The notes: a model not told the origin generated them from the letters alone. A DNA stretch of 64,000 nucleotides from Candidatus Limnocylindria bacterium (GCA_035559675.1 DATMAZ010000224.1:670-64669); one strand, 5' to 3'; counted from the first letter of the stretch, positions 38,108 through 41,312 are shown. Made by a program: numbers and translations.

Positions 38108-38181
38108 CGCGCCCGGGGTGAATCGAACACCCGACCTGCAGGTTCGAAGCCTGACGCTCTATCCAGCTGAGCTACGGGCGC
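38108..38181 (-). tRNA. tRNA-Arg (anticodon UCG)
   Basis: Cloverleaf: acceptor GCGCCCG/CGGGCGC; D-arm GCUC-AGCUGGAUA-GAGC; anticodon stem-loop UCAGG-CUUCGAA-CCUGC; T-arm GGGUG-UUCGAUU-CACCC; discriminator G; no encoded CCA. Confidence 0.85.
38143..38181 (+). repeat. Direct repeat copy 1 (5' half of tRNA-Arg, nt 1-39)
   Basis: 39/39 identity with 41274-41312. Confidence 0.8.
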
Positions 38182-38192
38182 GTGCTGCGGGA

Positions 38193-38441
38193 TCAACCAC
38201 TTAGCGCGACCGCCGCCGCGAGTCGAGGGGTCCGTGTCCGCATCAGCCGGCGGAGGACGTTCAGCAGGGTCTCCGGGGTGATCCCGCGCCAGCCCCACCG
38301 CCCATCGATATCGAGCACGCGGACGCTCCACTTCGGCTTGCGGGTGCGCCACGCCTCGGGATCGACTACGGTGCGCGGCTGACGACCGGAGGGAGCGAGG
38401 CGCGGGTCGAACTTCGGGTGCTTGTTGTTCCGCCGCCCCAC
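38193..38441 (-). CDS. Small hypothetical protein (82 aa) downstream of the Panacea-domain gene; candidate toxin partner
   Basis: GTG start 35 nt after the Panacea gene stop; strong GC3 bias; Arg/Trp-rich. Confidence 0.35.
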   Translation of the reverse strand: MGRRNNKHPKFDPRLAPSGRQPRTVVDPEAWRTRKPKWSVRVLDIDGRWGWRGITPETLLNVLRRLMRTRTPRLAAAVALSG

Positions 38442-38476
38442 CCACCACCGCCCCGCCGGGAAGGAGAGGCTACCTG

Positions 38477-38935
38477 CTACGGGGTCTCGGCAGCGTCAAG
38501 GCCGCCGTAGTACTCGGCCATCGAAGCGTGGCTGATCGTCGCCGAACTGCGTGCGCCCGCGGGCAGCCCGCGCCGCGCCTGGCGCCAGGGAAGCTCGCGG
38601 TGCGTGAGGTCGCTCAGCCACTGCGCGTCGCGCCGGCCGTAGAAGTTGAGCACGCCGTTGACCGTGCCCTGCTCCGACCAGTCGAGCGCATTCGCGTTCC
38701 CCCACGGCCACGCCGTGATGAGAAACTCGCCACGGTGCCGCTCATAGAGGTCCGGGCAGACCGGCCCGTTCGCCCATGCCTCGATCTGCTGCGGGAACAA
38801 CGGCCGGTCGTCCCACACAAGCGACCACGCCTGCGCGTAGTACACGAGCTTCTGGAGCTTCATGGCCGACATCGGCCCCAGCTCCCGAAGGATGTACGCC
38901 GCCACGTCGTGTACGGACACCATCGACCTCTCCAT
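38477..38935 (-). CDS. Panacea/DUF4065 (SocA-like) antitoxin-domain protein
   Basis: AMKLQKLVYYAQAWSLVWDDRPLFPQQIEAWANGPVCPDLY matches the DUF4065/Panacea core. Confidence 0.65.
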   Translation of the reverse strand: MERSMVSVHDVAAYILRELGPMSAMKLQKLVYYAQAWSLVWDDRPLFPQQIEAWANGPVCPDLYERHRGEFLITAWPWGNANALDWSEQGTVNGVLNFYGRRDAQWLSDLTHRELPWRQARRGLPAGARSSATISHASMAEYYGGLDAAETP

Positions 38936-39172
38936 CCCTATGATGCCTATCGTGCAGCTCGCCGGCAAGGCCCTGCGACGGCCGGTCAGCCGTGCGCTGG
39001 ATCAGCGCGGCTCGGTTCGGGGGTCCGCAAACGCGGCCAGGTCACGAGGGGAAGGTAGCAGGGCACGACTTCGTCGGCCAGAAGGGTGGCTGCCCCTCAA
39101 GCTCCGCACCTGCCGTGCCGAAATACGTGGGGAACGGCTTCGACCGGGAGAACTTCAACAGGAGGATGTGGG

Positions 39173-39643
39173 ATGAGGCGAACGTTCGGCTGGCTGGGGG
39201 TAGCGGTGCTCGTGGCATTCGGACCCCGCGACGCGGCGGCGATCAGCCCGTACAAGATGCTCCAGAAGCTCAAGATCGTAGACGGCGCTGGCTCGGGCCT
39301 CGACTCGGACACGGTGCAGGGACAGACCCCGGCCGACATCATCACGGCGGCATCAGGCGCAGCGGGCGCGGGCGTCGGGACGGCCATCGCGGCGTTTCTC
39401 GATTCTGCATACACGCGCACGGCGACCATCCCCGTCTCGTACGGCTTCTGCAACACGGTCGACGTGAGCTGCGATGACGCGAACGACTTCCTGTTGAACT
39501 GCGGCGGCGCAGTCGGCCTCACGACGGGCTACCTCACGACGGTCAGCGAGGTGCCGGGCGCGAACGGGACGTGCCGAGCTGGTGGATGCGGGGACGGTGG
39601 CGCAACCTCGCTCGCCGTCACCGCGACCTGCCTCGTGCGCTGA
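39173..39643 (+). CDS. Secreted Cys-containing hypothetical protein
   Basis: GGAGG RBS; signal peptide WLGVAVLVAFGPRDAAA; 8 Cys. Confidence 0.5.
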   Translation: MRRTFGWLGVAVLVAFGPRDAAAISPYKMLQKLKIVDGAGSGLDSDTVQGQTPADIITAASGAAGAGVGTAIAAFLDSAYTRTATIPVSYGFCNTVDVSCDDANDFLLNCGGAVGLTTGYLTTVSEVPGANGTCRAGGCGDGGATSLAVTATCLVR

Positions 39644-40035
39644 TGGCGAAGCGCGAGGGGCGGTACCTCATCCACCGACTCCGCAACGGACGATTCGATG
39701 TCGAAGTCCGGCTCTGGGAGTTCAACGGCGACCGAGCGCAGGAGTGGTGGGGAGACGTGGCGCGCGACTTCGCGACCGAGGACGAGGCACGAGTGAGCGG
39801 AGAGCGTCTGGTCGCGGCGTGGGTAGCGGGTCGCGATGTTCCGCTCCGTCCGGCACGACCCGCGCGTCTGGCGCTCGAAGCCGAGACATGCGCCGAGTGC
39901 GGCGGCACAGGGAAGTGCGCGCTCTGCGGCGGCACGGCGACGCGCGATGGTCGCCCCTGTCTCCTCTGCCACGACATCAGCGACATTCGACCCGGTCTCT
40001 GCCGCGGGTGTCGCGGGAAGGGGAAGACCAAATGA
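39643..40035 (+). CDS. DnaJ-type (CxxCxGxG) zinc-finger domain protein
   Basis: Four CxxC repeats: CAECGGTGKC, CALCGGTATRDG, CLLCHD, CRGCRGKGK. Start overlaps the upstream stop (TGATG). Confidence 0.5.
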   Translation: MAKREGRYLIHRLRNGRFDVEVRLWEFNGDRAQEWWGDVARDFATEDEARVSGERLVAAWVAGRDVPLRPARPARLALEAETCAECGGTGKCALCGGTATRDGRPCLLCHDISDIRPGLCRGCRGKGKTK

Positions 40036-40451
40036 ACGTCCGTGCCGCAGCACTGGTTCTCGGCATACTGGCGAGCGGCTGCACCGTCCGGCACGCCTCG
40101 CCGCTCGCTCAACGTCCCGACCGGCTCTGCATCCAGAGGAACCCGGCCGTCATCATCGAGGACTTCCTGCCGACGTTGCAGGCGGTCCTGCGCGAGCGCG
40201 GCGTCCAGAGCGCCGTCTACGACGGCGACGCCGCGCCGGCGAGCTGCGCCTACGTGCTTACGTACACCGCGCGCCGGGGCTGGGACATCGTGTCCTACCT
40301 GAAGCTCATCGAGCTAACGGTCATGCGCCGCGACGGCACCATGGTCGGGCACGCGGAGTGGCGGCACCGCGGCGGCTTCGGGTTCAACAAGTGGGCGGGG
40401 AGTCGCGGCAAGATCGAGCGTGCCGTCAACGATCTGCTCGCGACGGGATGA
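40032..40451 (+). CDS. Lipoprotein, hypothetical
   Basis: Lipobox VLGILASGC; ATGA overlap with the upstream gene. Confidence 0.5.
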   Translation: MNVRAAALVLGILASGCTVRHASPLAQRPDRLCIQRNPAVIIEDFLPTLQAVLRERGVQSAVYDGDAAPASCAYVLTYTARRGWDIVSYLKLIELTVMRRDGTMVGHAEWRHRGGFGFNKWAGSRGKIERAVNDLLATG

Positions 40452-40630
40452 GCGAAGACGCCCCCGAGGGAGGACATGATGGGCACGAGGGTTCGGGACT
40501 CGCGCACCGGCAGGTACGTGAAGAAGGGGACCGAGAAGCGGCGGCCGTCCACCACGGTCGTCGAGCGCGACAAGCTGCGCAGACCGAAACGGTAGGTCCA
40601 GGCGCGGCGCGTGAACGCCGGGAGGTGGAG

Positions 40631-40897
40631 ATGAGGTGGACTCCCCCGCTCGTTGTAGTGGCCGTCGTCTTGAGCGTGTCGGCGTGCCGCGGCTTCGTCC
40701 GCCCCGGCGCGACGCGCCAGGACTTCTACCGCGACCTCGTCGAGTGCCGAAGGCAGGAGCGCATCACCGGCGCGGACATCGGGCAGGCCGTCATGTGGGG
40801 CGGCGGGCTCAACAACTCGCGGAACTACTGCATGGGCGAGCGCGGCTGGGAGCTGCGGAACTGTGCGTTCACGTCGGCCGCGTGCTTCAAGCCGTAG
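40631..40897 (+). CDS. Small lipoprotein, hypothetical (88 aa)
   Basis: GGAGGTGGAG RBS; lipobox VLSVSAC; 5 Cys. Confidence 0.45.
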   Translation: MRWTPPLVVVAVVLSVSACRGFVRPGATRQDFYRDLVECRRQERITGADIGQAVMWGGGLNNSRNYCMGERGWELRNCAFTSAACFKP

Positions 40898-41273
40898 CGG
40901 CGCCCCGTCGTCAAGTTCGTGCCCTCGTTCGCGTAGTCGTTCTTCTTCTCGAACGCGCGGGTCCTCTTGCGGAGAGGCTCATTCGGGTCCTCTTTCGCAC
41001 AGACCCCGGACGGGGTGGTACGCGGCTCACCAGGTAGAACGCGACTCTTCTCGTGTGTCCCTCTTCTCGGTGCCGGAGGGGCCGGCGTTGGGAGCCCTCC
41101 TGCGCGCGAAAGGCAGTGTCCGCATACCCGGGTGGGGGTGCGCCGCCGTGTCCGCATTTTGTCCGTGTCGCGCTCCGAACTACCCCGACCACGCCCTGTC
41201 CGCGCGCGCCGCCGAGCTGCGCCGTGCCTCGCGTTCTCGGGCCTCGTCGGTGCAGCTCGCGCGCCGGAAAAGA

Positions 41274-41312
41274 TTCGAAGCCTGACGCTCTATCCAGCTG
41301 AGCTACGGGCGC
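41274..41312 (+). repeat. Direct repeat copy 2 (partial tRNA-Arg, nt 1-39 only)
   Basis: Identical to 38143-38181. Sequence diverges exactly after the anticodon loop. A degenerate T-arm-like stretch lies at 41171-41190. Confidence 0.8.

Follow-up and report, generated by a model that had tools for sequence, protein, structure and literature searches.

How does a bacterial chromosome come to hold an intact tRNA gene together with a second, displaced copy of its 5' half, and what is the 3.1 kb of DNA that lies between the two? This question is raised by a stretch of 64,000 nucleotides (hereafter the window) from Candidatus Limnocylindria bacterium (GCA_035559675.1, DATMAZ010000224.1:670-64669), in which a tRNA-Arg(TCG) gene and a 39-nt direct repeat of its first half bound a small segment, here called the islet. 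A sequence-only reading had described it as an integrase-less islet bounded by tRNA-Arg and by the displaced 5'-half copy, and this description was supported by the geometry of the repeat, by a related locus (L030) in which the tRNA gene stands whole, and by phage attachment (att) sites found in IMG/VR. Our answer is that the islet is probably the decayed remnant of an integrative element, which would have entered tRNA-Arg(TCG) using an attP site that carried a promoter and the 5' half of the gene, and which would later have lost its integrase and half of a Panacea partner gene by deletion.

The tRNA gene, its displaced 5' half and the att type

A single tRNA gene, the tRNA-Arg(tcg) at 38107-38181 on the minus strand, was found by ARAGORN in the window, and the Rfam tRNA model RF00005 scored 66 bits at 38108-38181. 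The 39-mer TTCGAAGCCTGACGCTCTATCCAGCTGAGCTACGGGCGC occurs exactly twice on the plus strand, within this gene (38143-38181) and 3131 nt away (41274-41312), in the same orientation. The perfect repeat of tRNA nucleotides 1-39 noticed earlier was borne out: no dinucleotide shuffle contained two such matches, even with three mismatches permitted, and the number of such pairs expected by chance is 0. With one mismatch the repeat lengthens to 42 nt. On the tRNA strand it runs from the first base of the acceptor stem to the last base of the anticodon loop, according to the structure line of the Rfam alignment, and the loop, CUUCGAA, supplies the closing base of the block. The 5' fragment is on the same strand as the intact gene and upstream of it; beyond the loop, just TCT is left of its 3' anticodon stem before the sequence becomes unrelated, and with an Rfam score of 22 bits, under the gathering score, the fragment does not qualify as a tRNA. 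No second copy of the 3' half of the gene is present anywhere in the window. From this geometry we infer that the intact gene is a hybrid, with nucleotides 1-39 and the promoter derived from an element and nucleotides 40-75 derived from the host, that the crossover region was the anticodon loop (38143-38149), and that an integrase made both junctions.

The regions upstream of the two copies are unrelated apart from one motif, CTCGACT-N16/17-TA(A/G), and the identity between the copies starts exactly at tRNA nucleotide 1. The motif consists of CTCGACT followed after 16-17 nt by TAAGTG or TTAGAA, and it is found at 38198-38227 upstream of the intact gene and at 41327-41355 upstream of the fragment. 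In alignments it also appears 5' of tRNA-Arg in the related loci L025 and L026, and in L030 as CTTGAA...TAAGT; this conservation suggests that the motif is a promoter. Because there are two distinct upstream regions of the tRNA-Arg type, with identity only from nucleotide 1 onwards, the arrangement points to an element that brought a foreign promoter together with a 5' half, and not to a local duplication.

Whether the 3.1 kb is an insertion was examined in orthologous loci, which were located by homologs of the WS/DGAT acyltransferase encoded next to the displaced fragment. In the outgroup L030 (WS/DGAT 57% identical), which retains the synteny of a Cys-rich gene with WS/DGAT, an intact tRNA-Arg(TCG) begins at the very end of the WS/DGAT open reading frame (ORF), and the tRNA fragment of the window, 86 nt past WS/DGAT, holds the position of this whole tRNA. 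Since the tRNA is intact in L030 where the window has only a 5' half, the 3.1 kb can be read as an insertion into the tRNA gene. The simplest reading, with support that is real but limited, is that the tRNA formerly stood beside WS/DGAT and was split by this insertion. Among the closer relatives, L025 and L028 (80-81%) have a GDSL lipase gene and then tRNA-Arg(TCG), with L029 (79%) showing the same sequence as L025 on a contig that ends about 1 kb on; L026 and L027 (82%) have two unannotated genes and then tRNA-Arg; L141 (78%) has His_Phos_1, HAD and ROK genes and no tRNA within 2.5 kb; and the P0002 contigs (85%, proteins only) have different genes again. No tRNA fragment follows WS/DGAT in any of these cargo-bearing loci. 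On the other side of this gene the loci are syntenic, with the gene for a Cys-rich repeat protein and, in L025, further genes up to window position ~49170. As to the suggested comparison for an empty tRNA-Arg locus, the tRNA directly follows WS/DGAT in the outgroup, and the closer relatives carry other genes there. The window's own species is in neither the GTDB nor the JGI collections, and exact look-ups of the flanking 704-, 666- and 490-aa proteins returned none on record. A GTDB scan with WS/DGAT as an empty-site test was set aside, as its best matches were 49% identical and showed no tRNA synteny.

The interval past WS/DGAT (41313-41397 in the window) differs among the relatives (L025-L030 and L141) and includes HTH_3 genes with small ORFs, while the other side is conserved over at least 8 kb. 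Here, on the 5' side of tRNA-Arg, there may be a hot spot of repeated insertion.

The same att type was found in phages. When IMG/VR was scanned for exact copies of the 39-mer, one contig was returned, UViG_3300010376_001406 (L134), in which the tRNA-like stretch is identical to tRNA nucleotides 1-41 and then diverges, and ARAGORN reports no tRNA there. This tRNA half lies inside phage DNA, with genes for a YqaJ exonuclease, an excisionase-like helix-turn-helix protein (phrog_66), a tyrosine integrase and an HNH endonuclease on one side, and for a Prim-Pol/VapE primase and terminase on the other. The integrase (457 aa, phrog_1 at 7.7e-25) is transcribed towards the tRNA half, and four of the five copies of CCGATGCAA on the L134 locus flank this half (0.14 expected). 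A second contig, L135 (_000019), encodes an integrase 82% identical to that of L134 and has, at the corresponding place, a variant of the tRNA-Arg(TCG) 5' half, with conserved flanking arm sequence. The two sites are attP sites carrying the 5' half of tRNA-Arg(TCG), which means that this att type is in real use.

Some further features of these phages were observed. Both ~460-aa integrases (L134 2333-3706 and L135 9992-11377) match phrog_1 at about 1e-24 and have no Pfam match below E=0.01 and no NCBIfam match; for the L134 integrase there was also no PDB sequence match. The HNH gene between int and attP in L134 (3703-4095) is absent from L135 (11377-11818) and has the appearance of a homing endonuclease inserted next to the att site. 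L135 is also without a stretch of ~48 nt, containing TTGACT, directly upstream of the tRNA half, and a strict sigma-70 scan of the phage attP gave no site. The idea that the islet is a remnant of an L134/L135 phage was rejected, as tblastx similarity was limited to the tRNA half.

The truncated partner gene, the islet genes and the arms

The features of the islet and its borders are collected in Table 1.

Table 1. Positions of the tRNA copies, islet genes, candidate arm-type sites and flanking host gene in the window
Feature	Position	Strand	Basis or remark
Intact tRNA-Arg(TCG), putative hybrid	38107..38181	-	ARAGORN; RF00005 66 bits
Repeat copy 1, tRNA nt 1-39, identity block of the attR-like junction	38143..38181	-	Exact repeat; Rfam alignment structure line
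Upstream region, putatively element-borne; abuts truncated partner gene	38182..38243	-	CTCGACT 38221-38227, 17-nt spacer, TAAGTG 38198-38203, then one 10-mer copy
Truncated partner gene (putative toxin), 82-aa ORF, N-terminal ~66 residues of a ~126-166-aa protein	38193..38441	-	HMMER homologs
GTGTCCGCAT copy 1, left arm, at end of partner-gene homology	38234..38243	+	Candidate arm-type site
Panacea/SocA-like antitoxin-domain protein, 148 aa, without intact partner	38477..38923	-	PF13274; phrog_1281
156-aa protein, signal peptide, Cys-rich C-terminal half (cargo)	39173..39643	+	Sequence; GC3 0.85
130-aa protein, CxxCxGxG-type zinc-finger repeats	39643..40035	+	Sequence
139-aa Sbal_3080-family lipoprotein, lipobox LASGC	40032..40451	+	NF040519; phrog_20612
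39-aa very basic ORF	40476..40595	+	38-aa gene call on Logan contig L003; GC3 0.93
88-aa predicted lipoprotein, lipobox VSAC, several Cys	40631..40897	+	Sequence; GC3 0.94
Non-coding right arm, 376 nt	40898..41273	.	No ORF with coding-type GC3
GTGTCCGCAT copy 2, right arm	41116..41125	+	
GTGTCCGCAT copy 3, right arm	41148..41157	+	12-mer CCGTGTCCGCAT common with left-arm copy
Repeat copy 2, putative displaced 5' half of original tRNA, attL-like junction	41274..41312	-	86 nt past WS/DGAT stop
Upstream region, putatively of original host tRNA	41313..41356	-	CTCGACT 41349-41355, TTAGAA 41327-41332
Flanking host gene, WS/DGAT acyltransferase, comparison anchor	41398..42888	-	PF03007, PF06974; orthologs, conserved upstream synteny

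The state of one gene pair tells most about the history of the islet. The Panacea/DUF4065 antitoxin-like gene proposed by the sequence-only reading was confirmed by PF13274 (1.7e-14, 55 bits against a cutoff of 25.7) and by phrog_1281 at 3.5e-35. The small ORF that had been placed downstream of it does exist, but it is a gene fragment and not an intact gene: a full HMMER search with the 82-aa ORF gave 12 homologs, all of 126-166 aa and aligned only over their first ~70 residues, and in the alignment the ORF departs from the family after ...LLNVLRRL, at residue 66. By tblastn, the last position homologous to the partner gene is nt 38244 or 38229, which leaves ~50-60 nt to the tRNA. Of the 80 IMG/VR loci retrieved with the Panacea protein, 73 have a full-length partner directly after the Panacea gene; examined as a toxin-antitoxin module, the islet has the Panacea domain and no adjacent intact toxin gene, and the C-terminal part of the partner was not found anywhere in the window. 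Because the homology stops so close to the tRNA and no C-terminus is present in the window, a deletion appears to have fused the middle of the partner gene to a short arm upstream of the tRNA. Such a truncation speaks for decay, and against an element designed to be without an integrase. The lost integrase would then have lain between the truncated gene and the tRNA promoter; since the L134 integrase is on that same side of its attP, it is reasonable to suppose that the integration module was lost in the same deletion.

The complete partner, a protein of ~150 aa, has the motif WGW in its N-terminal half and RIWGI...LWWDPxHxxxP at its C-terminus (P0143-P0154; L054 1678-2145). It has no Pfam family, and its sole weak match is NCBIfam MAG6450_fam at 1.8e-4. 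We treat it as an unnamed candidate toxin family, the role of toxin being assumed from gene order. In two IMG/VR loci (L060 9655-10429 and L063 9823-10426), a Panacea homolog with 59-60% identity lies ~90-260 nt from the 5' end of a divergent tRNA-Leu(CAA).

The second group of islet genes had been described as a divergent, translationally coupled cluster of four genes. The cluster is indeed divergent, and its first two junctions are start/stop overlaps (TGATG at 39641-39645 and ATGA at 40032-40035); it comprises five ORFs, though, with an extra 39-aa basic ORF at 40476-40595, and the remaining ORFs are 24-35 nt apart. The protein that had been named DnaJ-type zinc-finger shows the CxxCxGxG repeats in its sequence, but this 130-aa protein matched no Pfam family at E<0.01, and no PHROG or NCBIfam family either. 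The 139-aa lipoprotein was assigned to the Sbal_3080 family by NF040519 (88 bits against a cutoff of 80) and matched phrog_20612, a family of unknown function, at 8.6e-15, and the 88-aa lipoprotein had no family match in Pfam, PHROG or NCBIfam. Residues 22-79 of the secreted 156-aa protein gave weak PHROG tail-fibre matches (1.5e-5 and 1.2e-3); this partly Gly/Ala-rich stretch may be low-complexity noise or a phage-derived fragment. The G+C content at third codon positions (GC3) is 0.76-0.94 across the islet ORFs, as in host genes.

The absence of a recognisable recombinase between the repeats, as claimed earlier, was borne out: none of the seven islet ORFs matched a recombinase in Pfam or PHROGs, and nine alternative-frame ORFs over the non-coding arms had no PHROG match and revealed no integrase remnant. 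The suggested search for a cognate integrase outside the islet, within the 64-kb window, found none, as ~40 further ORFs were not integrase-like and represented ordinary chromosomal genes (CysS, FeoB, sensor kinases, dehydrogenases).

The origin of the islet genes was also looked into. A prophage test found no phage structural, replication or lysis genes in the islet, and its phage-associated matches are limited to phrog_1281 (Panacea), phrog_20612 and the weak tail-fibre matches to the low-complexity stretch. Panacea homologs with 55-71% identity, and none above 71%, occur across several phyla and in IMG/VR, and they belong to a very large subfamily that is common in viral contigs and whose members from several phyla are 60-71% identical. 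Homologs of the Sbal_3080 lipoprotein (76-88% identity) are solitary, in contexts otherwise unlike the window and with no mobile-element genes called nearby. In the loci fetched, no relatives of the remaining cluster proteins were detected, and neither the 139-aa lipoprotein nor the 82-aa ORF has relatives in IMG/VR. No exact match was obtained with the reconstructed attP arm sequences, and GenBank phages showed DNA similarity only at the tRNA and at a short piece of the Panacea gene.

Both ends of the islet share a short repeated sequence. The 10-mer GTGTCCGCAT is present in three exact copies in the window, where 0.21 would be expected, and 0 of 100 shuffles reached this number; all copies have one orientation and lie only at the islet ends. 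When random segment pairs of equal sizes were drawn, 0.26% of them had a 10-mer twice in one segment and once in the other (p~0.003). The copies lie ~90 nt to one side of the anticodon loop and ~125 and 155 nt to the other, a spacing that resembles that of arm-type sites, and they may be arm-type binding sites of a recombinase.

Two neighbouring genes outside the islet deserve mention. Just 3' of the tRNA, a 666-aa gene (35980-37980, minus strand) has a GC content of 0.60-0.65, against ~0.70, with a normal GC3 of 0.89; its product, which belongs to no Pfam or PHROG family, is Rossmann-like at its N-terminus and hydrophobic at its C-terminus, and the gene is not syntenic with those that relatives have past tRNA-Arg (in L026 an Abhydrolase-guanylate cyclase gene, in L028 a 466-aa ORF). 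A second island of the 3' type in this region of lower GC was considered and rejected, as the 3' half of the tRNA is unrepeated in the window and the GC3 is normal. Beyond WS/DGAT, in the gene for the large secreted Cys-rich protein (42933-45593, minus strand), a 93-nt (31-aa) unit is repeated in tandem about five times at 43512-43992; the orthologs of this protein have a faint DUF4215 match, and it is conserved beside WS/DGAT in all relatives.

Proposed history and competing explanations

We propose the following history. An element, prophage-like or island, would have entered the chromosomal tRNA-Arg(TCG) by site-specific recombination of the tyrosine-integrase type, with the crossover in or beside the anticodon loop. 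Unlike most elements that target tRNA genes, its attP would have carried the 5' part of the gene, namely a promoter-like region and tRNA nucleotides 1-39. Integration would have displaced the host promoter and 5' half to 41274-41356, beside WS/DGAT, and joined the promoter and 5' half of the element to the host 3' half, giving the intact hybrid tRNA at 38107-38181. One or more later deletions would have removed the integration and excision genes together with the 3' half of the Panacea partner gene, and the remainder would have become fixed, with a partnerless antitoxin-like gene, the five-ORF cluster and two non-coding arms with the repeated 10-mer.

Several observations weigh against this history. 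No parent element was found, and the GC and GC3 of the islet are host-like, so that its composition gives no sign of foreign origin; the donor was probably similar to the host in composition. No islet-free genome of the same species was found, and the empty site is deduced only from the outgroup L030, at 57% in WS/DGAT, while closer relatives (78-85%) have other genes and no tRNA fragments between WS/DGAT and tRNA-Arg, which weakens the reconstruction of the ancestral state of this interval. The islet and the L134/L135 phages have only the tRNA half in common. The statistic for GTGTCCGCAT is post hoc, and one of its copies lies inside the truncated ORF, at its end. Lastly, a strict sigma-70 scan gave no site upstream of either tRNA copy.

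The same junctions could also belong to an element that still moves. In this explanation, the islet is a satellite without an integrase, similar to a cis-mobilizable element (CIME), whose att junctions and arm repeats are used in trans by the integrase and excisionase of a helper phage or integrative and conjugative element (ICE) with the same specificity for the 5' half of tRNA-Arg. In its favour are the junctions, both perfect over 39 nt, and the 10-mer, which recurs in the two arms with a spacing that is typical of arm-type sites; phages with this att type exist, and CIMEs are a described category (PMC6323972). We nevertheless consider this unlikely, as decay reaches to ~55 nt from the tRNA and leaves a very short left arm with a single motif copy, the window contains neither a helper nor a cognate integrase, and the only phages found to share the att type have another arm motif. 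Neither a circular form nor an empty site was seen in the Logan k=31 assemblies, the graph of which is compatible with a circle plus an empty site. A bolder form of the idea, to which we give still less credence, is that the islet is alive as a minimal hitchhiker which is reduced to its att core, a small number of arm sites and the promoter that drives the rebuilt tRNA, and which is excised and re-integrated in trans by a helper integrase. If so, imprecise loss of the islet would silence tRNA-Arg(TCG), and the element would have a built-in hold on its host.

The decayed-remnant history must also be set against explanations that involve no integration at all. The fragment at 41274-41312 might be the debris of a local duplication or of illegitimate recombination, and the 3.1 kb ordinary DNA of a variable region; this would fit the host-like composition, the different and non-mobile-looking genes, without repeats, between WS/DGAT and tRNA-Arg in relatives, and the occurrence of Sbal_3080 lipoprotein homologs away from any called mobile-element genes. 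A duplication would have copied the flanks, yet the identity stops exactly at tRNA nucleotide 1 and at the anticodon loop and the upstream regions differ; the repeat has the limits that are known from the anticodon-centred att class and from an actual phage attP, and the islet bears a phage-associated Panacea module, all of which make this explanation very unlikely. An assembly artefact, in which a 3.1-kb circular episome with one 39-mer was threaded into an uninterrupted tRNA locus, is most improbable. Proteins identical to those of the window are encoded on a 68.7-kb NCBI contig of a metagenome-assembled genome (Candidatus Limnocylindria) and in two SRA (Logan) assemblies. In both Logan assemblies (k=31) the WS/DGAT contig ends inside the 39-mer and the islet is a separate contig of 3152 nt with repeat k-mers at both ends, and this graph would be equally compatible with a circle and an empty site; the break arises because a 39-bp repeat lies in a k=31 graph. 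The same islet and junction k-mers were found in the two independent SRA assemblies, the long NCBI contig runs through both junctions, the repeat is shorter than ordinary reads and the large k values of assemblers, and a 3.1-kb circle without a replication gene would not persist.

Comparison with known systems

The islet shares parts of its organisation with several known systems. As in PanA (Panacea) antitoxin/toxin pairs, which are common in phage and prophage contigs, its Panacea gene is directly followed by a conserved small partner; in the islet, however, this partner is reduced to its first ~66 residues. The L134/L135 phages have their tRNA target in common with the islet, down to the part that is used (nucleotides 1-39, identical in L134, and then 2-3 nt of the 3' anticodon stem), and they likewise have upstream sequence supplied by the element and short repeated motifs on both sides; they differ in their arm motif (CCGATGCAA against GTGTCCGCAT in the islet) and in retaining xis and int, which are absent from the islet. 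In the tRNA-dependent lysogeny of mycobacteriophages, integration reportedly destroys the host tRNA, for which the phage compensates with a complete tRNA gene. With the islet, in contrast, a hybrid gene would have been rebuilt from an element-borne 5' half, and there is no complete second tRNA.

The locus is a clean example of a minority use of tRNA genes, in which the 5' half is replaced and the element must therefore bring a promoter; if the proposed promoter is correct, a host tRNA is then expressed from foreign DNA. The L134 and L135 phages supply a set of int, xis and attP for this att class. Their integrase, which is seen by PHROGs but not by Pfam, is a caution for integrase-based island finders, since Pfam-based screens would miss it, and the locus illustrates the quick decay into integrase-less islets that are rejected by integrase-dependent tools such as Islander. 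Current understanding is unchanged by the islet, which is a useful, ordinary case.

The closest described class is that of the islands with a 5' fragment and an anticodon-centred att site in the Islander collection (Hudson et al. 2015, PMC4383910). As in that class, the islet has an intact tRNA gene and a cognate end fragment on the same replicon and in the same orientation, the fragment is a true 5' end and not an internal piece, it is displaced upstream of the intact gene, and the element restores the gene; the block of identity reaches as far as nucleotide 39, the last base of the anticodon loop, as expected for an A-type att site, in which the loop is flanked by the dyad symmetry of its stem. 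Islander accepts as legitimate a 5' fragment that lies upstream of the intact gene, or a 3' fragment that lies downstream of it, and it lists 2083 anticodon-centred attP sites (PMC4383910). The sequence-only reading had called a repeat of the 5' half an unusual att configuration. It is uncommon, but it belongs to an already known minority class: 159 of 3919 islands (~4%) have a 5' tDNA fragment, compared with 3760 that have a 3' fragment (PMC4383910). The islet differs from the class in that Islander demands a tyrosine integrase inside the island and none lies within or overlaps the islet; its 3.1 kb is also near the 2-kb lower size limit. In this respect the islet resembles the CIMEs, which have lost integration and transfer genes and keep attL and attR intact, and which were defined for ICE-derived elements of Firmicutes that are mobilised by accretion with an ICE (PMC6323972). 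Like them, the islet is small, is without recombinase and transfer genes, has intact att junctions, and is probably derived by deletion from a larger element, with the completeness of its arms made doubtful by the truncation ~55 nt from the tRNA. In contrast to CIMEs, the islet shows no sign of mobilisation, of an ICE origin or of a helper, and its Panacea module and PHROG matches suggest a phage-like source. The islet is probably an uncommon but already described kind of genomic-island remnant.

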